Made by a program: the position numbers and the translations under genes
Notes under the pieces: generated by a model
What the model saw: only the letters and a program-made list of their open reading frames with translations
The model's database searches: none
Told to the model about the DNA's origin: nothing
Part shown: positions 3,675 through 59,266 of the stretch, in pieces
How the letters are laid out: the number at the start of each line of letters is the position of its first letter
Numbering within the stretch: position 1 is the stretch's first letter
Source of the DNA: a virus
Taxonomy: Duplodnaviria; Caudoviricetes
IMG/VR virus record: IMGVR_UViG_3300005841_000939
Direction: 5' to 3' (one strand)
Length of the DNA stretch: 64,000 nucleotides

Positions 3675-5357
3675 TTAGCATTCTGTCTGACCTACAAACA
3701 AGTTAGGATATACACCAGAATTTGGAATATCATCAGTTGGATTTGCAAAACCAGTCTTTGCACCAGCAATCATGAAGTTTCCTGGGAAAGTATCTAAAGT
3801 TGATTCGCCATCACGACTAATTGAGAAATAAGCGATTGCTCCACGACTATTTTGTAAATCTTGATAGAAATCGCCATAAATTTCAAAATATGCCATCTTA
3901 CCTGTCAATGTATAAGCTGGAATTGGTACCAAATATGAGAATGTCTTATAAAGCAAGTCACTAGGATTGCCAAATTCGCCAGTATTTACAATTGCAACTT
4001 TAATATCAAATTTAATATGACTGCAAATGCGTTGTGGATCGGTACCACTTATTCCACATGTAACTGTATCAGAGAAAGCATTTTGATTAACAAAATAACT
4101 AATTCCCAAGAAACATAAACCAGGAGATGGACCATCAACACGCATATTGTAATGCATGAAACGTGTAAAGTGTGGATCAAATTCAAAAACATTGGTCTTT
4201 GGCAAATAACCGGTTGGAGCGCCAGTTGCAGCACTAAATTCTAATTCAGTATGGCGAGGTCCAGACAACTGATCCCAATCAAATTCTTCAATAGTTCTAT
4301 TGAATTGAATTGCACAATTTATTTGTTCTCTTGTCAAAAGATTAGGAAGTTTTGCTCTTCCGCAACTACCAGCAGAAAAACGACCATCAACAGTTGTAAC
4401 ATTACTTTTGGTTATTCCAAGATTGAAATTATAGAATGAATTGATGTCTAAATTTTCAAATTCATAATCATCATAAGGAATAGCCAAATTTCCTAAGAAC
4501 ATTTGACTGATTGCCAATGCGCCATCATTTCTTGTTCTACGAATTCTGATTTTTACAGATTCAGTATTGAAACCAGCTCGGAATACAATGTAAACTGTGC
4601 GATACTCTGGCTTCCATTGTTGAAAATCATTTGCATACAATTCAAACATTGGCCAAGGGCCAACAGTTCTTATATCTTGGATAGTTACGCCAGTTCCAAT
4701 TACTTCCAATCCAATATCTTCATAACGGGCATAACAACCCGTTGAAAGATCGGGAACACAAGTCCCTGATGCAGGACTAGATGATGTTGATGGTGAACAT
4801 CCAGGAGTACCTACTCCACTAATATTAGGAACTTCAGAATCATTGCAATATGGAATTTCATAATCAAATGGTACTTCTTGATCAAGCAATGTGTTGACGC
4901 CAGTACCCTTTATTGCAAAAACAAATTGTGAACCACGAACTAATGGTGGGATATAAAATTCACGCTCTAACCAAATTCCATGCTCGCCATTCACATCTGT
5001 AAACGACTTACCACCCTTATATACCAATAATTGTTTAGCACCATCACCTTGAATGTCAGAATCATTTGAAACTAAACCATTGTTGATAGCAGTCCAAGCA
5101 TTTTTCTTTTCAAAGCAATCAAAATTTCCGCCATTACTGAAAATCTTATTACCTCTAGCATCATAATCTAAAAGATTACCATAAAGTTGTGATAAGAAAG
5201 ACGGTGAATTAGCAGCAGCTACAGAAACAAGTTTTGCAAGAACATTGATATTTTGTTGAAGTTCTTGGAGGGGAATATTTACATTCTCATCGGTAACGTT
5301 GGCGTTAGGATTAAGAAGTGATATTTCGTTAATGAAATCTTCTCTATTTTGAGCCAT
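3675..5357 (-). CDS. Putative tail fibre/baseplate appendage protein (560 aa)
   Basis: Baseplate context. N-terminal D-x-VN-x-PLQEL-x-x-N resembles fibre attachment motifs. FSNGGNF...W resembles the start of a carbohydrate-binding module. Confidence 0.5.
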   Translation of the reverse strand: MAQNREDFINEISLLNPNANVTDENVNIPLQELQQNINVLAKLVSVAAANSPSFLSQLYGNLLDYDARGNKIFSNGGNFDCFEKKNAWTAINNGLVSNDSDIQGDGAKQLLVYKGGKSFTDVNGEHGIWLEREFYIPPLVRGSQFVFAIKGTGVNTLLDQEVPFDYEIPYCNDSEVPNISGVGTPGCSPSTSSSPASGTCVPDLSTGCYARYEDIGLEVIGTGVTIQDIRTVGPWPMFELYANDFQQWKPEYRTVYIVFRAGFNTESVKIRIRRTRNDGALAISQMFLGNLAIPYDDYEFENLDINSFYNFNLGITKSNVTTVDGRFSAGSCGRAKLPNLLTREQINCAIQFNRTIEEFDWDQLSGPRHTELEFSAATGAPTGYLPKTNVFEFDPHFTRFMHYNMRVDGPSPGLCFLGISYFVNQNAFSDTVTCGISGTDPQRICSHIKFDIKVAIVNTGEFGNPSDLLYKTFSYLVPIPAYTLTGKMAYFEIYGDFYQDLQNSRGAIAYFSISRDGESTLDTFPGNFMIAGAKTGFANPTDDIPNSGVYPNLFVGQTEC

Positions 5358-19714: not shown

Positions 19715-20098
19715 TTATAATTTCTCCAAAGAAACGCTTACTGAATCAACTTGTTGTGTATTGGCTATTTGATAGATTACTTGAACGTCATAAGATGTAG
19801 AATCTGAATCCATAACAACATTTATACTGATAATTGTTATTCTAGTTTCCCAATTCTTCAAACTTTCTTCTGCATCTGTTCCTATACGTGTAGCAGTGGT
19901 TTCATCAAATGGTTCAAAGAGGAATGTTTTAATTTTTGATCCATAATCAGGCATGAAGATTCTTGTTCCCTTAGGAGTATTCAAAATCATATAAATGGAT
20001 TGTTTGATACTATCTATGTTTTGGATAGAACTCAAATCGCCAGATGAGTTTACATCAGGATTTATAGGTAAGTCTTGATAATAAATCTGCGTAGCCAT
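19715..20098 (-). CDS. gp25: Baseplate wedge subunit gp25 (GPW/gp25 family)
   Basis: SIKQSIYMILNTPKGTRIFMPDYGS...LFEP...LKNWETRITI; sits between gp5 and gp6. Confidence 0.93.
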   Translation of the reverse strand: MATQIYYQDLPINPDVNSSGDLSSIQNIDSIKQSIYMILNTPKGTRIFMPDYGSKIKTFLFEPFDETTATRIGTDAEESLKNWETRITIISINVVMDSDSTSYDVQVIYQIANTQQVDSVSVSLEKL

Positions 20099-33500: not shown

Positions 33501-33980
33501 GTCAAGATTTGCATCATTCAACAAAACAGTTTTTGTTGAATCATTAGGGCCAGTTTGAGTTATTTGATCAACCTTCGCTTGCTTTGTTTGAATATCTGTA
33601 TTGACTTGACCCAACAAAAGATTATTAATACCTTGAATTGCGGTAAATTCAGGAATTGTACCTGTTGGAAGAGTTGCTAAGTAATATTTAACAGTATTTG
33701 GAATTTCAGCTTCATTTTCCCATGGAGTATAAACATTGAGATTTACATCAAAAAGATTTGTTGAATAAAGAAGAGGCTTTGTCAAATTTGCATTTAGGTA
33801 CTTATTAGCAGAATCAACATCTTTTTGAACTAAACGAATTTGATTCTTCAATCCATTACGAATTACTTTACCAGAATCGTTGAAATCATTGTAAGTTGCA
33901 TATTGCTTCTCTAGGTTATATCTTTCTATAACTTTATTAACTGCAAGAATTTGCGCATCTTGTATTGTTAAAAACGCCAT
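30525..33980 (-). CDS. Tail tube initiator/cap (gp48/gp54-like C-terminal domain) with long N-terminal coiled-coil extension (1151 aa)
   Basis: KQSITIDFVLF...IMFLTSLSYP...LAYIDSVDYSF resembles the gp48 fold. First about 700 aa are Q/N/A/D-rich and helical. Confidence 0.6.
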   Translation of the reverse strand: MAFLTIQDAQILAVNKVIERYNLEKQYATYNDFNDSGKVIRNGLKNQIRLVQKDVDSANKYLNANLTKPLLYSTNLFDVNLNVYTPWENEAEIPNTVKYYLATLPTGTIPEFTAIQGINNLLLGQVNTDIQTKQAKVDQITQTGPNDSTKTVLLNDANLDLDQSEALAAAIEAHNKEIENAKNSILTPTDNTPSLSPTDTSIRQSITDNVTHKVGYKNQLDVESTVVMRKKVLDAFYTAKTPDEKALAERRLELALQASGPDVPITRSSLPYDPARYLNLSTQLTEVNDEIITLQTQISVTTDPTQLAILNAMLDQKNKQKLILNDLLNGFQDSKIPSTSYFGSFTTTEIAPIPNNTGVSYNVANADAETNEITRQRNMPNNSPRNDQSVDLVTGAVVNKNNGNYSAAGRYVDATDPNKDELIKSLSDQKKIQAQQEYDIELKRNQGIIDSATLARNETLDDLNAKATDLQNQKAQQTDPEKQKALDIQLQQVQIDRQAALDTYSANTETASNNITKASNVYASDINNIESGQAQLNNTAIPPATPESARKVVNDFDNSVAAQDQSQIELSKQLKIAENNARTNNPGQDPTLSANWSQADKDKVQAAINKSNDAAATQKDAAAQLELMSSTEAGRQAIAGAGVNSQKLDARLNANGTNAASNIVFGNNTITGNVSDANFSSTQVTSQLESSNIRPDTGFEGINNGAPFYLQMPTLNSLGDFKLANGISPYGKRGALDVARDAVHFNIFEITPPAPKATTDSAGLVVNDVDAAKSNTLGVFTIYPTNSDYLNFSHKHTYNDEDRVASSINQVLGTVNTADTLLSLGATVLGSSQRGQEQGVNSIVQRRIESISTYSGTAKQSITIDFVLFTKNDFIRDVFRPIMFLTSLSYPKRTTSGNFANIGQAASKATQKAALNAGTPDSIRSLLLASGVKAEEAGKLLDNLENKFSRYGGIGPYRYYVSRRPEYMSIRHASGLFTFPLAYIDSVDYSFQGPWYNFNGDPLSPNGELENTVRNSVAAAAASKGFLDSISDAFKNAFENAGTSKSKTNNPQTTFINPMNPGSLTDRASKTFKNDTAYYNKYSLPYAYPSWAKISITVSNALPMFRDDFLESFYAGGGPNPGNGLVTVSEKQAGFASNLNLANGVSRANGF

Positions 33981-36709
33981 TACGTAGCTCCTAAAGTACC
34001 ACGCGACAAGTGGTGTAAAGTATATATCTCATATGATTCGGAATAAACATTCTCTTCTATTATATTAGTGATTGATCTTGGCTCTTTTTTATTTGATGCT
34101 TCTAATGCAGTTTGATTTTGTTTTGTAATTGCATCTACGTGCATTCTAATAAATTCTTTACCTTGAACATCTAACGGAAGAATTTTACTTAAATCTTTTG
34201 GAAGAATACCACCAGTTGCCATTTTTTTAGTTTTGTTCATTGATGCTGCACTATTCAATAATTGATCAATAGAATTTGTCAAACGAACGCGAAGATTTTC
34301 ATCATTTATGTTTGTTGTAATTAAGTGATCATAATCAGCATCAATGTATTTCTTTCCAACCAACTTATGACGTTGATCATCGTCTTCAACATATGGAACT
34401 TGAAGCAAATCGGCCAAATCTCGTCTAACTTGTGATTTTACTTGTGCATTACCTGGGAAATTACCATATTCATCAAAATATTGATGCATCATATTACCAA
34501 TTAAATCATCGGTCTTTAATTTACCACCAGGTCCAGAAATTGATGAGAGATTACCTTGATTTAATGTAGATGTTATTCCAGCATTATTTGAAAACTGACC
34601 AGAATCATACACATTACCTAAAGTTTCTTGACCAACAGCAGAAACAGCAGTTAACGCAGCGCCATATGTTATTTTTCTAAGAACACCAATTGGCAAAACA
34701 CGCATCGCAGCTACACCTAAACCACTTATATTTGAAGATAGCTTAGCCAAGCCAATTGCTGTTCTACTATTTGCATCTAAAGGATCAGCATCAAGAAAAT
34801 CTCTGTAAGATGGTGACAATTTCATTTTATCAAGTTCATTTGAAACTGATGCAAGTTGATCAATTGTTGAATCTGAATAATCTTTATCAAATACATATCC
34901 TGCATTTTTTAAACGTGATGCTGTTTCGGTATTGTCTATTACTTTAATATAATCTAATGTACTTTTTATACGGTTTGAAGTCTCATCATTGTATTCAACG
35001 ATTCCACTATTAATTGCACTTAATTGCTCTGTTAACGTTTGAATTGAACTAATACGTTTATTGAATACATCATCACCAACTAAACCTTTTCGTCCAGAAA
35101 TAACATCTGATGCGCCAGAATAAGCTTGCATCTTTGATTCTGATATTGCTTCGCTTGAAATTTTGCCAAAAATAGTTTGTTGCAATTTAGGAAGAATAGT
35201 TTCATCAACTGTTTTCGCAATTGACTCCTTTGACATTCCTTGTTGTTGCATAGAAACGATTTCTCTCTCTAATGCTGCTGTCAATACTTTTTGTTTTTCT
35301 AATTCTAATGTTTTTGAAACCGCATCACCTTGTCCATACATTACAAATCCATATTTTCTCTTCAACGTATTGACAGAGTTTTTCAAAAATGGAAATAAGG
35401 ATGTTGCAGTTACTTCATATCCTAAAAATGAAATTTTAAAGTTTTCTAATTTATTGACAAGCTTTGCTGCTAATGTTTTACCTGGCATTTCTTTTACATA
35501 TTTGACAATAGATGAAAAGACTGAAGCTGAACTATCATACCATTTATCAAATACATCCTTTGTCCATGTATACGCAGACTTTACCCATTTAATGGTGTCA
35601 CCAAGCAATGTACTTGGACCAAACCATTGCGAAAGCATTACTTTCACACGATCAGAAAAATCTGAAAGATATTCTTTTATATTATTTTTTCCAATGTGGA
35701 CATTAATAATCCAATTAAACCCTTCTTTTACACCAGCCCACAACCATTCTGTGAAATCTGCTAACTTATCTGTTGCTTTGTTAAACAAATTTTTCATTGT
35801 TTGATAAATTGGACCCGAAACTAAATCAAATGCTGTTTCAAAAACACGAAACATCGCATACGTTATTCCAACGAAAATTGGAATATTTATAATCCACATT
35901 GAAGGACTAAACAATGTAGTGAAAAGATTTTTGAAATACCATCCAAAGAACGCTTTAGTACCTTTAAGAACCCATGTTCCAGTTGTCTTTAAAGCATCAT
36001 ATGGGAATGAAAGTAATGCTTTTATACCATCGCCAATTAAACTAATAGCTTGCCATCCAGTACCAATTACCCATTTTGCAATTTTTCCAATAGAACCTAC
36101 TGCATTTTTAACAGCAGTCCATGCTGGACCCAAAGAAAAATACATTAATTTATCAGCAATTTTAAATCCAGCTTTAAATGGTCCAAGTAAGAATTTACCC
36201 AAGCATGATGCAATATCAATTATACCTGTCATCAACGATTGTAAACGTGTTGTTGCATAAGATCCAACAGACGAAACAACGCCAGAAATTTTATTTGTAA
36301 ATGAAGAAGCTCTATCAGTTATTGCTTTCCATTTTTCAAGAGATTGTTTTTCTTTTATACCTAATCCAGAAATAGTAAATGGATTGATGGAATCAACTTG
36401 TTTCTTGAGCTTATCAATTAATGTCTTTTTCTTTTTTGGTTTAGGTTTTTCAACTTCTTTTTTCAATTCATCAACATTTTTCAAATTCATTGTTGTGCCT
36501 TGAATAGCCATAAACGTACGAGCCATCAAACCAATTAAATTTTCTTGGAATGCTGATGTTTGTGCATCATCATCAATTTCTTCTTTTAATTCTCTCTCAC
36601 GGATTTTAACATCCGCAATAGTCTTGAGGTCTTTTGTTTTATCAGCGACCATTTTCTTAAACAATAATTTGTTATCTCTATTAGATGATGGAAGATCAAT
36701 GGATGCCAT
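33980..36709 (-). CDS. Tape-measure-like protein B (909 aa)
   Basis: Amphipathic W/F-studded helical repeats, C-terminal MATGGI motif, position after the tail chaperones. Confidence 0.65.
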   Translation of the reverse strand: MASIDLPSSNRDNKLLFKKMVADKTKDLKTIADVKIRERELKEEIDDDAQTSAFQENLIGLMARTFMAIQGTTMNLKNVDELKKEVEKPKPKKKKTLIDKLKKQVDSINPFTISGLGIKEKQSLEKWKAITDRASSFTNKISGVVSSVGSYATTRLQSLMTGIIDIASCLGKFLLGPFKAGFKIADKLMYFSLGPAWTAVKNAVGSIGKIAKWVIGTGWQAISLIGDGIKALLSFPYDALKTTGTWVLKGTKAFFGWYFKNLFTTLFSPSMWIINIPIFVGITYAMFRVFETAFDLVSGPIYQTMKNLFNKATDKLADFTEWLWAGVKEGFNWIINVHIGKNNIKEYLSDFSDRVKVMLSQWFGPSTLLGDTIKWVKSAYTWTKDVFDKWYDSSASVFSSIVKYVKEMPGKTLAAKLVNKLENFKISFLGYEVTATSLFPFLKNSVNTLKRKYGFVMYGQGDAVSKTLELEKQKVLTAALEREIVSMQQQGMSKESIAKTVDETILPKLQQTIFGKISSEAISESKMQAYSGASDVISGRKGLVGDDVFNKRISSIQTLTEQLSAINSGIVEYNDETSNRIKSTLDYIKVIDNTETASRLKNAGYVFDKDYSDSTIDQLASVSNELDKMKLSPSYRDFLDADPLDANSRTAIGLAKLSSNISGLGVAAMRVLPIGVLRKITYGAALTAVSAVGQETLGNVYDSGQFSNNAGITSTLNQGNLSSISGPGGKLKTDDLIGNMMHQYFDEYGNFPGNAQVKSQVRRDLADLLQVPYVEDDDQRHKLVGKKYIDADYDHLITTNINDENLRVRLTNSIDQLLNSAASMNKTKKMATGGILPKDLSKILPLDVQGKEFIRMHVDAITKQNQTALEASNKKEPRSITNIIEENVYSESYEIYTLHHLSRGTLGAT

Positions 36710-36710
36710 G

Positions 36711-39155
36711 TTAGATTAAACCTAATGACCCTTCTGAAAGATTTTTCATATCATACACTGTAATATCTGCTTTTTGTGCATTTCTTCTAAACATTCTAAT
36801 AATTGGTTCAGTCTTTGATTTTTTATTATCTTTTTCTTCTTCCATTTTTGGCATAGTAGAATTAATAAACTTTATACCTTCCATGTTTAATGGAATTACC
36901 ATTTCTGGAAACCCTGCTTCTGCAATTTGAATATCAACTGGCTTAACTGCAACTAAACCATATTGTGCTTTTGATTTACTTAGTAAGTCATAACTTTTTA
37001 GATTATTAAAATCTACATAATTAGATTTTTTACCATATTGATTCAAAATATTTTTTAAATATTGCGCAGCTTCATCTTCAGAAATTTGTTTATTCAAACC
37101 AGATTTTTCCAAGAAATCTCTGTAAGCTCTTACAAATTCTCCTGGTGTCATAGTTTCAATATTTTTTGCCAATTCATTAATACCATCATTTATTGAATAT
37201 GTTTTACTTATCATCGCTGAAATGATGGCCTCATATTTACCATTAACTTGCATTGCTTTATTTGTAGCTATATTCATTATGTCAGTTTGTGCATCAAATT
37301 GTTTCTTAGCCAATTCTTCAAAACCCTTTTTGGTTGAAGTGAATGATAGGTCACGTAATGCTTTTTGTTGATCTAGGAATGCACTAACACGAACGTCAAA
37401 TCTATTTTTCTTAAATGCATCATCCAATTCAGATGCCAATGCTGATGATGCTTCAATAGTTTGTAAATTTCTATCATTTGCAATACGTTGTAAATCTTCT
37501 AGTTCAACTGAACTCTTCAATAATCGTGTTTTATTTGTTGATAGGTAGTTTTCAACTTCTCCCATACGTAAATGAAGAATTTCATTAACAAGACTATCGG
37601 TATTTACATTGATGTTTGATTTTAAGAATCCTTGTAAATCTGCATCATTTGTAAACGAATCTATGTTTTTCATAAACACATTTTCAATAAACTTATTTGC
37701 AGTTGTTTTCAAATTTACTGAAATATTTTCTTGGTTTGGATTTCCACCATAAACATTGAAAAAATCCTCTGTTAATTTGTTTTTCAAGACTGCTTCAAGC
37801 TGATCATTCATCGCATTTTTTAAACCAATACGAATACGACGCTGAGAATCCTCAAATGAATTCTCTTTTACAACTGTATCCTCACTCAACACCATTGTAC
37901 GAATTATATTGTATGTTAGACTCAATTCTTTGATGATGTCCAAATCTTTTAACTGTTGGAAGAAATCAACCATTTTTTTCCAACTTTTTACAATAAATGT
38001 TTTTACATTTGAAAATAAATTCATTAAATCTTTTGAATCCAATCCAGTCCATTTTCCTATAGTGTCATCATAATAACGTTTTATCTTTGCACCAGTAAAG
38101 AAAGAACCAAAAATTGATTTAATTTTGTCTGTAATAAATTCTACTTTATCTGCTAGGTAGGAATAAAATTTTGTTTGTTTAATACTCTTCACAAAATCAT
38201 CAAATTTTTCTTTTACCCACTTCCATCCAGTTGAGAACACTTTACCAAAGAATGGTTGTATTTTTGGCCACAAATAAATATAAGCCACAGTAGCGCCACC
38301 AGCAAGTAAGAACAAACCAGTTGGACTAGTTAAAAAGAATTTGAATGCATCCCCCATGAATCCCACAACAGTTTTCAATGGAGTAACAACAATATAATTT
38401 AATAAGGTTGATGCAACTTTCCAGCCAAACTTTCCTAAACGCATGAGTTTATCAGCAGCATATTCAACAACGCCAATTACAGCATCCTTAACCCATTTTG
38501 CAATTTCCCAAATACTTCCAACTTTTGAAAGTAATGACCAAACTGTTACACCAGGACCATTTAACCAATTGAAAAATCTACTTCCAGTTTTTTCCCAAAA
38601 AGCACAGAATGAACTGTTAGAAATTGATCTTTTTATTTTTCCAAGGGACACTTCTACAGAAGAACCAAATTTTGTCATCAATGAAAACATATATGTTGTT
38701 TTCTTGATAAGAGTATCAGTTGTTTTTTGAGTTATATTTTTGAATGACTTTGTTGTATCAATTGTCTTAGAAATAATTGACTTAGATATTTCTTTTGTCT
38801 TTGTAGAAATAACTTTAGTTGATTTATTTTGTTCATCAATCTTTTTTGTCAAAGCTTGAGATACATAATTAGCATCAGATTGCATTTTCTGTGAATTTTT
38901 ATCTTCAGCAGCTTTTGCATCACGAATCTTTTTAATAAGGTTTTCGGCCCAAGTATCCATATCATCGCGCTGTTTGACGATAATTTCGGTAGTCTTTACA
39001 GCCTCTGCAAAGTCTTTTTGATCCTTCTTTATTTTATCCCAATTTTTTTGAATAGTATTTTCTGATTCGTATTTTTGACGATACAATGATTCCACTATGG
39101 AAAATGCACCTGAAGTTCCACCAGGTAAAGCTAGTTTGTTATAGGAATCAGCCAT
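36711..39155 (-). CDS. Tape-measure-like protein A (814 aa)
   Basis: Amphipathic W/F helical repeats, C-terminal IAEAGFPEMVIPL (GEAGPE-VIPL-type motif), directly after the gp51-like gene. Confidence 0.65.
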   Translation of the reverse strand: MADSYNKLALPGGTSGAFSIVESLYRQKYESENTIQKNWDKIKKDQKDFAEAVKTTEIIVKQRDDMDTWAENLIKKIRDAKAAEDKNSQKMQSDANYVSQALTKKIDEQNKSTKVISTKTKEISKSIISKTIDTTKSFKNITQKTTDTLIKKTTYMFSLMTKFGSSVEVSLGKIKRSISNSSFCAFWEKTGSRFFNWLNGPGVTVWSLLSKVGSIWEIAKWVKDAVIGVVEYAADKLMRLGKFGWKVASTLLNYIVVTPLKTVVGFMGDAFKFFLTSPTGLFLLAGGATVAYIYLWPKIQPFFGKVFSTGWKWVKEKFDDFVKSIKQTKFYSYLADKVEFITDKIKSIFGSFFTGAKIKRYYDDTIGKWTGLDSKDLMNLFSNVKTFIVKSWKKMVDFFQQLKDLDIIKELSLTYNIIRTMVLSEDTVVKENSFEDSQRRIRIGLKNAMNDQLEAVLKNKLTEDFFNVYGGNPNQENISVNLKTTANKFIENVFMKNIDSFTNDADLQGFLKSNINVNTDSLVNEILHLRMGEVENYLSTNKTRLLKSSVELEDLQRIANDRNLQTIEASSALASELDDAFKKNRFDVRVSAFLDQQKALRDLSFTSTKKGFEELAKKQFDAQTDIMNIATNKAMQVNGKYEAIISAMISKTYSINDGINELAKNIETMTPGEFVRAYRDFLEKSGLNKQISEDEAAQYLKNILNQYGKKSNYVDFNNLKSYDLLSKSKAQYGLVAVKPVDIQIAEAGFPEMVIPLNMEGIKFINSTMPKMEEEKDNKKSKTEPIIRMFRRNAQKADITVYDMKNLSEGSLGLI

Positions 39156-39163
39156 ACTTAGGC

Positions 39164-39171
39164 TATTTATA
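39164..39171 (-). promoter_or_regulatory. T4-type late promoter TATAAATA upstream of tape-measure-like A
   Basis: Exact motif 8 nt before the ATG. Confidence 0.75.
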
Positions 39172-39183
39172 TGTTTTTAGTGG

Positions 39184-39438
39184 TTATTTGTGACCACCCA
39201 AATTGCGTAAAGACTTGATTAATGTTTCTAAACCTTTACTTGCAAATTCCATGACAGTCTTGATAAATTCTTGTCTTACACGAATCTTTTCATCGTAATG
39301 TTTACGTAAAGTTGAAAGAATAAAGGGTAATTCATCCGACGACACATCCATTACATCACCATATGTCATGGCACCTTCTGAATAAATTGCGACTTCAAGA
39401 GACTGATTTATGAGTGTTGCAAAATGGTCAGTCGCCAT
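39184..39438 (-). CDS. gp51-like tail/hub assembly chaperone (probable -1 frameshift extension of gp26)
   Basis: MTYGDVMDVSSDELPFILSTLRKHYDE resembles the gp51/TAC C-terminal helix; TAATG overlap with gp26. Confidence 0.65.
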   Translation of the reverse strand: MATDHFATLINQSLEVAIYSEGAMTYGDVMDVSSDELPFILSTLRKHYDEKIRVRQEFIKTVMEFASKGLETLIKSLRNLGGHK

Positions 39439-39469
39439 TACATGATAAAAAAACTGACTACATCTCCCT
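39401..39469 (-). promoter_or_regulatory. Predicted programmed -1 ribosomal frameshift signal
   Basis: AGGGAG (39469-39464), 10 nt, in-phase T TTT TTT (39453-39447), 7 nt, then a predicted H-type pseudoknot (39439-39401). Confidence 0.7.
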
Positions 39470-57943: not shown

Positions 57944-58002
57944 ATTTCATAAAGTTGTATTCCCTTATATAAATAATTATTGGGAATACAACTTTATGAA
58001 AT
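57944..58002 (+). repeat. Perfect 21-bp inverted repeat enclosing a late promoter and covering the HNH start codon
   Basis: ATTTCATAAAGTTGTATTCCC (57944-57964) and GGGAATACAACTTTATGAAAT (57982-58002), with a 17-nt loop. Confidence 0.95.
57968..57975 (+). promoter_or_regulatory. T4-type late promoter TATAAATA for HNH-gp4
   Basis: Exact motif in the hairpin loop. Confidence 0.8.
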
Positions 58003-58892
58003 GTAATGTATGTAATAAAATTTTTGATAATTTTAGAAAACTTTCTAAGCATATCAGGGATAATCATAAAGAATTTTCAATTCAAAAATATTACGATACT
58101 TTTGTAAAAAAGGAAAAAGAAGGTTTATGTCCAATATGCAACGCTCCAACAAATTTTGCATCTATATCTAAAGGATATCATTTAATTTGCTCATCGCGTA
58201 AATGTGCATGCACATTTAACAGAGACAAATTAAGAAAAAATCCAGAAAAATTTAATTTATTTAAAGAAAAAGTATCTAAAAATTTAAAAAACATGTGGAA
58301 ATTTAAAGATAATTCTTTAAGAGTATCAAAAACAACAAAAACTAGGAATAAATGGGTTGAAACTTTATCAGATGATGAACGATCTGAAATTTTTGGATGG
58401 TTAAATAAATTATCACCAGAAGAAAAATCAATAAAATGCAAAGAGTTATTAGATAAAACATTGTTTAAATGGTGGAAAAATGCATCAGATGAACAAAAGC
58501 AACAAACATATAAAAAAATTGTAGAAACAAAAATTAAAAACGGAACATGTCTACCCGAATCAGAAGAATATAATTATTTAAATTACAAAAAACAAGTTAG
58601 AAAACTATCTGAACAAAATTACAAAAAATATAAGGAATTTATAAACCCAAACAACTTAATACGTTCAAGAAAAATGCAACTTGATCATCGTGTTAGCATA
58701 TTTAATGGATTTATTTTAGGTATACCAAAAGAAATCATTGCAAGTCCATATAATTTAGAACTTTTAGATGGATATAAAAATAATCAAAAACACAAAAACA
58801 ATTCTATTTCAATTGAGGAATTATGTCAAAATTTCAAAAAAGTATATTCATCCCAACAAATCCAAAAAAATACAAAGGAAAAACTCCGGTAA
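57996..58892 (+). mobile_element. Free-standing HNH homing endonuclease gene with N-terminal C2H2 zinc finger
   Basis: C-x2-C-x12-H-x4-H at the N-terminus, CPIC...CSSRKC, and C-terminal LDHRVSI...NLELL...NNQKH; very A-rich coding sequence. Confidence 0.8.
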
Positions 58893-59266
58893 TAGCAAGA
58901 AGTTCCTGGGAAACTAAATTCATGCATTTCTTGGATTCCAACGCTAATGTATTGGAATGGTCAAGTGAAAGTTTGGCAATACCTTATATCAATCCTTTTA
59001 CAGGAAGATGGTCAAGATACTTCCCTGACTTTGTAATTAAATACAAAGATAATAAGGGTGTAGAAAAATTTGAAATAATTGAAGTGAAACCAATGAAGCA
59101 AACCATTGCTCCTACAGTTTCTAGAGGAAAATCTAAAAAGACTGTCCTAACAGAAAATAAAACTTGGATTGTTAATAATGCTAAATGGGCATCAACAGTA
59201 GAATTCTGTAAAAAGCATGGTTATGCATTCAGAATTATTACCGAGAATGATTTATTTTTTAAGTAA
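58823..59266 (+). CDS. gp4: Head completion protein (TnsA-like nuclease fold)
   Basis: PTNPKKYKG...RSSWETKFM..LD.N.NVLEWSSE...IPY...YFPDF...IEVKP...NNAKW. Confidence 0.95.
   Translation: MSKFQKSIFIPTNPKKYKGKTPVIARSSWETKFMHFLDSNANVLEWSSESLAIPYINPFTGRWSRYFPDFVIKYKDNKGVEKFEIIEVKPMKQTIAPTVSRGKSKKTVLTENKTWIVNNAKWASTVEFCKKHGYAFRIITENDLFFK

Follow-up and report, generated by a model that had tools for sequence, protein, structure and literature searches.

We analysed a DNA stretch of 64,000 nucleotides (hereafter the window) from a virus of the Caudoviricetes, IMG/VR record IMGVR_UViG_3300005841_000939, and in it the junction of two overlapping open reading frames (ORFs) of the minus strand. The upstream ORF encodes a protein of 264 residues resembling gp26 of phage T4, and the downstream ORF, of 84 codons, lies in the -1 frame relative to it. 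Seven consecutive T stand close to the end of the first ORF. Here, we argue that a -1 frameshift at this T TTT TTT very probably allows the pair to produce a short and a long form of a tail chaperone. The source virus record has 262,529 bases, is judged to be 97% complete and is present in rhizosphere metagenomes.

The junction and its two reading frames

At the heptamer the zero frame reads AGT TTT TTT ATC ATG TAA. The two ORFs meet in a TAATG overlap, in which the upstream stop codon shares bases with the downstream ATG. From the heptamer onward the -1 frame has 89 open codons, and a ribosome slipping back by one base would make a product of 349 residues (262 + YHV + 84). The ORF coordinates give the same length as an earlier reading made from the letters alone (hereafter the sequence-only reading), and every element that this reading had placed at the junction matches to the base on the minus strand (Table 1). 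It had also listed five other TAATG overlaps of the window as devoid of a heptamer, and indeed none has one beside its stop codon. There are only four runs of seven T on the minus strand of the 64 kb, and the site exceeds what chance would give. Leaving aside ORFs nested within a longer ORF of the same strand, we found an in-phase heptamer within the last 40 codons followed by a long open -1 frame in only two ORFs of the window, one at the chaperone junction and the other in a pair at 57996-59266. The contig of an independent public run (X1) carries identical letters at the junction, with no indel.

Table 1. Elements of the junction and the genes around it, with positions in the window
Feature	Position	Strand	Remarks
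SD-like (Shine-Dalgarno-like) element AGGGAG	39469-39464	minus	10 nucleotides 5' of the heptamer
Spacer ATGTAGTCAG, 10 nucleotides	39463-39454	minus	between AGGGAG and the heptamer
Slippery heptamer TTTTTTT	39453-39447	minus	X XXY YYZ phase; two codons before the stop
Spacer ATCATGT, 7 nucleotides	39446-39440	minus	3' of the heptamer
AATGG (5' arm of candidate stem S1)	39439-39435	minus	complementary to CCATT
C, single nucleotide	39434	minus	between AATGG and GACTGA
GACTGA (5' arm of candidate stem S2)	39433-39428	minus	complementary to TCAGTC
CCATT (3' arm of S1)	39427-39423	minus	
Loop, 16 nucleotides	39422-39407	minus	between CCATT and TCAGTC
TCAGTC (3' arm of S2)	39406-39401	minus	
Whole proposed H-type pseudoknot region	39401-39439	minus	
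Upstream ORF, gp26-like, 264 residues	39438-40232	minus	C-terminus ...VVSFFIM*
Downstream ORF, 84 residues from its own ATG	39184-39438	minus	-1 frame relative to the upstream ORF
Tail sheath (gp18-like), 653 residues	40991-42952	minus	phrog_23 tail sheath, E 1e-99; PF04984, PF17482
Tail tube (gp19-like), 211 residues	40307-40942	minus	phrog_45 tail tube, E 1.7e-36
Probable tape measure gene, 814 residues	36711-39155	minus	position, size and a weak match to T4 gp29

The 264-residue protein matches the family PF12322 (T4_baseplate) above its gathering cut-off (57.0 bits against 24.5, E 2.8e-15, residues 23-232) and the family phrog_150, baseplate hub (E 7e-20). It is encoded by the only gene above the PF12322 cut-off in the 262.5-kb genome. 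Outside the window, at G000:C1:96895-97020 (locus L115), we noted a second PF12322-like stretch that stays below the cut-off (14.3 bits, E 0.0035, profile positions 140-182). It lies in an open frame of 77 codons and may be a remnant or a chance match; it is not a full gp51-type gene.

The structure of the protein was predicted with AlphaFold (AF2) and eight homologues, giving a predicted local distance difference test score (pLDDT) of 87.8 and a predicted template modelling score (pTM) of 0.83. In an exhaustive comparison of the model with 48,161 solved chains, the three best matches were 2ob9, the tail assembly chaperone of phage HK97 (gp13, Z 7.0), 3klu, YqbN (Z 6.8), and 3fgx, Rbstp2171 (Z 6.6), the fourth-ranked chain reaching only 5.0. 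These three alignments cover 91-94 residues and two of them lie within residues 1-105 of the model. All three chains are named phage tail assembly chaperones (PMC9603447, citing Pell et al. 2013). Three chaperones at the top of an unbiased list are difficult to attribute to chance, even at these middling Z values. The sequence-only reading had taken the pair for the counterpart of the G and GT chaperones, and the resemblance of the gp26-like N-domain to the tail-assembly-chaperone fold speaks in its favour. A structure search of BFVD returned 73 matches at E <= 1e-3, and the named ones among the top 50 were mostly baseplate hub proteins from many kinds of myoviruses. Foldseek found no significant match for this model in the PDB or among the Swiss-Prot models, so that the exhaustive comparison alone ranked the chaperones first, and sequence profiles gave no link to lambda-type chaperone families.

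The product of the small ORF has no family match in Pfam or PHROG. Three helices are predicted for it (pLDDT 81.7), and its model had no telling match in BFVD, where a single weak row, from phage Moogle, carries the name 'tape measure chaperone'. Among 1.84 billion representative proteins, a profile search uncovered only 16 relatives, the credible ones all being small stand-alone calls, several of which are truncated at internal Met codons. Three long matches were considered as natural fusions and rejected, given that they consist of many short matched stretches and that the one inspected as a sequence, P0024, is made of tandem repeats.

Conservation of the slip site and of its surroundings

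Relatives of the locus fall into two sets. The first, hereafter the window lineage, comprises the window and 13 metagenome loci (L002-L005, L007-L011 and L110-L113), with a protein identity to the window of 46-53% in the ten loci measured. To collect relatives, single-protein scans of viral contigs gave little and an alignment query gave more; a metagenome scan added one further usable locus, a duplicate of L011, and a DNA search of the phage collection with the whole locus gave no match. The nearest annotated relatives are the gp26 genes of cyanomyophages, and the second set is made of 80 related cyanophage contigs (L017-L096), isolates among them; 78 of the 80 loci are untruncated.

The T run is present and in phase in 14/14 loci of the window lineage. 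In L010 it reads T TTT TTC, which is still slippery, and in L113 it has eight T. The synonymous sites flanking the heptamer are variable among these loci, and the use of TTT for the first Phe has a joint chance of 0.007 given codon usage (10 loci counted). All 80 cyanophage loci have T TTT TTC one codon before the stop of gp26; in S-RIM8, for example, the protein ends in ...ASFFG*, coded AGT TTT TTC GGA TAG. The codon before the cyanophage heptamer is AGT in 45 loci, TCT in 30, GCT in 3 and AAT in 2, i.e. it encodes Ser, Ala or Asn and always has the form NNT. When the two sets are taken together, the base 5' of the Phe codons is T in 94/94 loci, over four different codons, and the run keeps the X XXY YYZ phase in every one of them. 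We also noted that the last base of the cyanophage heptamer is C in 80/80 loci, though TTC accounts for 27% of the Phe codons in those genes.

The -1 frame is conserved together with the slip site. In the cyanophages it is open over 61-70 codons in 78/78 complete loci, and the peptide it encodes is conserved from the slip site onward, the first Met falling at a variable position between 5 and 35. The protein of 45 residues annotated as 'gp51' in S-RIM8 lies in this frame, which is open from the heptamer onward. In the window lineage, the -1 extension is conserved in all 14 loci, and its conserved domain in L110 and L111 has no ATG until residue 18 or 32. This excludes a start at the conserved position and makes a -1 shift from the upstream gene the simplest route to the domain. 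An insert of 27 nucleotides separates the chaperone stop from the ATG of the small ORF in L007 (3995-4022) and in L010 (about 3786-3813); both inserts are open in the -1 frame, and their mutual differences are synonymous or conservative in that frame. As the junction motif TTTTATAATGTAATG recurs in the L007 insert, this insert resembles a duplicated copy of the overlap. The conservation of heptamer and frame in 14/14 and 80/80 loci argues for a -1 frameshift that joins the gp26-like gene to the next ORF, which was the central claim of the sequence-only reading.

In T4, genes 26 and 51 are divergently transcribed. Both products match PF12322 from end to end (gp26 over residues 1-206, gp51 over residues 1-201), and gp51 has about 48 additional C-terminal residues beyond the part resembling the family. 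In a comparison with hhalign, this C-terminal tail proved homologous to the -1 extension of the cyanophages (probability 96%, E 4.9e-9). Since both proteins match PF12322 and the gp51 tail is homologous to the cyanophage extension, T4 gp26 corresponds to the short form and gp51 to a hard-wired long form, an assignment that we derive here from sequence comparison. T4 gp26 ends in ...EFFELL, and its FF is coded TTC TTT, which is not slippery. We also considered T4 gene 25, the next gene, which shares one base with gene 26, as a frameshift partner and rejected it, as gene 26 has no heptamer near its end. The single PF12322 gene of the window genome fits a long form made by frameshifting.

Upstream of the slip site, AGGGAG forms a duplex with the anti-SD sequence of -8.5 kcal/mol, which places it in the top 0.3% of the 20-nucleotide segments of the locus. 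Complementarity to the tail of the 16S rRNA ending 9-15 nucleotides before the heptamer is found in 14/14 loci of the window lineage (-5.8 to -13.2 kcal/mol), and ranks within the top 0-10% of the 20-nucleotide segments of each locus (Fisher p 3e-13). The SD-like element rests on GAG codons, which in the 10 loci with codon counts represent only 2-24% of the codons for Glu (joint chance about 1e-10). In L003, L005 and L110 the element is moved by 3 nucleotides and falls on different residues, an indication that the constraint acts on the nucleotides. In the window, 25 nucleotides separate it from the ATG of the small ORF, a distance too great for a role in initiation there, and this ATG has no SD sequence within 20 nucleotides. 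The complementarity kept in 14/14 loci and the rarity of the GAG codons it uses support the suggestion of the sequence-only reading that AGGGAG is a stimulator, and make it a probable one. As to the cyanophages, they have GA(G/A)GG exactly 9 nucleotides upstream of the heptamer in 80/80 loci; it is GAGGG in 50 of them and GAAGG in 30, so that GAGGG is an enrichment rather than a fixed feature.

Downstream of the slip site, an H-type pseudoknot had been proposed. The complementarities of its two stems exist as written, but the stems are weak (single-hairpin energies of -2.1 kcal/mol for S1 and -4.3 kcal/mol for S2) and the structure is not kept across the lineage in which the heptamer is. S1 is 97.5% paired and shows no covariation. 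It pairs because the ATG start and the His codon CAT are reverse complements; it is absent in L110 and L111, in which both codons are missing, and the CAC used for His in L010 weakens it. S2 is 70.8% paired. Three of its pairs are changed on both sides, the middle pair is broken in 5/8 sequences, one clean compensatory change occurs, in L002, and half of the lineage has not kept the stem. The candidate pseudoknot might at best be a feature of the window, L008 and L002. Over the whole lineage, the 50 nucleotides 3' of the heptamer are more structured than other segments of the same loci (Fisher p 1.4e-6), with structures that differ by locus, and some 3' structure is probably favoured; the 50 nucleotides of the window itself are ordinary for their locus (percentile 0.475). 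The idea of three stimulators combined at one site is not supported in the form in which it was put: with S1 explained by coding and the middle pair of S2 broken in 5/8 sequences, what is left is the heptamer and the conserved SD-like element, with a weak putative pseudoknot.

Probable synthesis of a short and a long form

The anatomy of the junction, its conservation, the start-less -1 domain of some relatives, the family membership of the upstream protein and its fold resemblance are direct observations, and from them we infer that the slip takes place, how efficient it is, what the SD-like element does and which contacts the proteins make. Most ribosomes would stop at the end of the gp26-like gene and give the 264-residue short form (TAC-N), and a minority would move back by one base and give the 349-residue long form (TAC-NC). 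The slip would take place with two tRNA-Phe on the UUU UUU of the in-phase U UUU UUU, after which the ribosome would add Y-H-V and continue into the 84-codon ORF. The tail of the 16S rRNA would pair with AGGGAG 10 nucleotides upstream and probably aid the slip, as in E. coli dnaX, and the weak downstream structure may provide additional help. By analogy with lambda G and GT, the N-domain common to both forms would coat the tape-measure protein, whose gene follows immediately, and the long form would make a second contact through its helical C-extension. T4 makes the equivalent pair from two separate genes, encoding gp26 and gp51.

The two ORFs might also be joined before translation, if RNA polymerase adds an extra U on the seven T in some of the mRNAs. 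Homopolymer runs can cause polymerase slippage, e.g. in dnaX of Thermus and in some insertion sequence (IS) elements. Yet seven T, or six T followed by C, are short for efficient polymerase slippage, and six T followed by C is precisely the run of the 80 cyanophage loci and of L010. The conservation of the X XXY YYZ phase in both sets also stands against this explanation, and a conserved anti-SD element spaced as in dnaX can be understood only if the ribosome itself slips. The title of Vladimirov, Gautam and Davidson (Virology 2022, 566:9-15; hereafter Vladimirov et al. 2022) could be read in favour of polymerase slippage, but PMC10885494 explains it by separate short and long genes and not by slippage. 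Hence, we regard transcriptional slippage as improbable.

Naturally, several observations weigh against a -1 frameshift that makes two chaperone forms. The Z of about 7 is middling on the aligner's own scale. No hard-wired fusion of the window lineage is found among the 1.84 billion representative proteins, and the phage is known from metagenome contigs alone. The 84-residue protein compares with the cyanophage extension at E 0.016 and with the gp51 tail at E 0.13, low-probability matches that are not significant, although a motif E-N-M-x-x-x-E is aligned between it and the cyanophage extension. With these profile values and no family match, the label 'gp51-like' that the small ORF had received is not supported as it stood; it holds for the C-terminal part of the long form, and there by position only, not for the whole of gp51. 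Among the starts of 43 minus-strand genes of the window, only about half are preceded by even a four-base SD-type motif. With such SD-poor starts, initiation in this phage or its host may depend little on SD pairing, which matters for the way in which an SD-like element could stimulate frameshifting. The residues S-F-F are invariant as protein, so part of the conservation of the heptamer is a coding constraint. Finally, the -1 ORF begins with an ATG in 12/14 loci of the window lineage, the window included, and the TAATG overlap of the window could give a free 84-residue protein by reinitiation.

The last two points are what one would expect if the small ORF were translated separately, by termination and reinitiation at TAATG, and if the T run were there to encode Ser-Phe-Phe in an AT-rich genome. 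TAATG overlaps are common in the window, and TTT is the commoner Phe codon in most loci of the lineage. Yet separate translation leaves L110 and L111 without an ATG over the first 18 or 32 residues of a conserved domain, and the cyanophage homologues without a conserved start for a peptide that is conserved from the slip site. It does not account for the T that precedes the Phe codons in all 94 loci whichever of the four codons is used, nor for an SD-like element that is conserved though far from the ATG, and the inserts of L007 and L010 keep the -1 frame open between stop and ATG. Separate translation in place of the slip is thus very improbable, and reinitiation may occur alongside it. An assembly or sequencing error, with a single ORF of 349 codons as the true gene, might come to mind for an error-prone homopolymer from a metagenome, but it can practically be dismissed, as the two-frame layout recurs in the 13 other loci of the window lineage, which come independently from metagenomes, and also in the 80 cyanophage loci, isolates included, the contig of run X1 has no indel and the 1.84 billion representatives contain no single-ORF version.

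It is possible, though we hold this rather doubtful, that the SD-like element is a true 5' stimulator. It would then form a composite signal with the heptamer, as in dnaX, and the 3' structure would be swapped freely between phages (a pseudoknot here, hairpins elsewhere). A conserved 5' stimulator of tail-chaperone frameshifting was not reported in the literature that we searched, and may already stand in Vladimirov et al. 2022.

Neighbouring genes and related systems

The phage is a T4-like jumbo phage. Its affiliation with T4 had been proposed from the letters and is borne out by a T4-type late module on the minus strand, with the portal, the major head protein, gp13/14-like connector proteins, a gp15-like sheath stabiliser and the large terminase, and onward the sheath, the tube, the chaperone ORF pair, the 814-residue protein and baseplate genes. 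The order sheath, tube, ORF pair and tape-measure-like gene is found in the window and in the 7 relatives with genes called that far downstream. The pair thus has the tube gene on one side and the probable tape-measure gene on the other, in agreement with the lambda G/GT placement that had been claimed for it. The 814-residue protein has no family match in the Pfam and PHROG search and aligns with T4 gp29 in a colinear but weak way over 447 residues, which include a hydrophobic segment (E 0.069). It is the likely client of the chaperone pair.

Three further observations were made around these genes. First, the region 3' of the chaperone pair (33980-39155, minus strand) is occupied by two large tandem genes encoding 814 and 909 residues, neither of which matches any family. 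Second, TATAAATA, the T4 late-promoter consensus, is found at about 39160-39175 on the minus strand, between the small ORF and the tape-measure-like gene, and likewise upstream of the starts of other late genes at 20098, 21745, 48421 and 52106. Its position directly upstream of the tape-measure-like gene means that this gene and the chaperone pair may be transcribed separately as well. Third, the other ORF with an in-phase heptamer near its end is on the plus strand (57996-58892, 298 residues). It has A AAA AAT eight codons before its stop and a -1 frame open over 133 codons, into the overlapping ORF 58823-59266, which encodes a TnsA-like endonuclease N-domain (PF08722, E 3.8e-21). This pair might represent another frameshift candidate or the split gene of a mobile endonuclease, or it might be due to chance.

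The principle of frameshifting in tail chaperones of T4-like phages is already published, and the locus of the window is an additional example. Poly-T runs are given as known -1 signals in the TAC-N genes of T4-like phages in PMC12846349, in a passage citing Vladimirov et al. 2022. Some T4-like phages have one short gene and one longer fused gene and no frameshifting, according to the summary of the same work in PMC10885494. Neither of these summaries names gp26 or gp51. The window pair has much in common with the TAC-N/TAC-NC pairs of T4-like phages: the family PF12322, a short form together with a C-terminally extended long form, and a slippery run of T where the short gene ends. T4 itself differs by its two divergent genes and by the absence of a slip site, and the cyanophages differ by a heptamer T TTT TTC where the window has T TTT TTT. 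The extension of gp51 and of the cyanophages has about 45-65 residues, whereas that of the window has 84-89, mostly begins with its own ATG and shows no detectable sequence similarity to the gp51 tail. Finally, the pair lies directly between the tube and tape-measure-like genes in the window, whereas its T4-like counterpart lies in the cluster of hub genes.

A conserved -1 frameshift in tail assembly chaperone genes goes back to Levin, Hendrix and Casjens (1993) and Xu, Hendrix and Duda (2004), as these works are cited in PMC12859696. With gpG/gpGT of lambda the window pair shares the position between tube and tape-measure genes, a heptamer in phase shortly before the first ORF ends and an extension encoded in the -1 frame, and its N-domain resembles the fold of the HK97 chaperone gp13. 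It differs from the lambda-type chaperones in having no sequence similarity to them, an N protein that is twice as long (264 residues) and an extra C-terminal domain. The slip site of lambda is G GGA AAG, which is not known to need a stimulator, whereas the window lineage has a conserved SD-like element.

A parallel in this respect is dnaX of E. coli, whose -1 frameshift signal was reportedly described by Larsen, Wills, Gesteland and Atkins in 1994. In dnaX, AGGGAG stands 10 nucleotides 5' of the heptamer A AAA AAG, and a strong, proven stem-loop follows 3'. The window has the same AGGGAG hexamer at the same 10-nucleotide spacing, an X XXY YYZ heptamer and a possible structure about 7 nucleotides further 3'. 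It differs by the letters of the heptamer and by stems that are weak and not conserved. The slip of dnaX shortens its product, whereas that of the window would lengthen it.

These results have consequences for annotation. The 84-residue ORF, called hypothetical here and in relatives, should be joined to the gp26-like gene as its -1 product, and the pair should be named tail assembly chaperone instead of 'baseplate hub subunit'. The conserved SD-like element offers a simple and testable handle on how the rate of slippage is set. More generally, the locus bridges two arrangements, as it has a PF12322 chaperone of the T4 family in a lambda-type position and with a slip site. It thereby supports the published view of gp26 and gp51 as the G and GT of T4.

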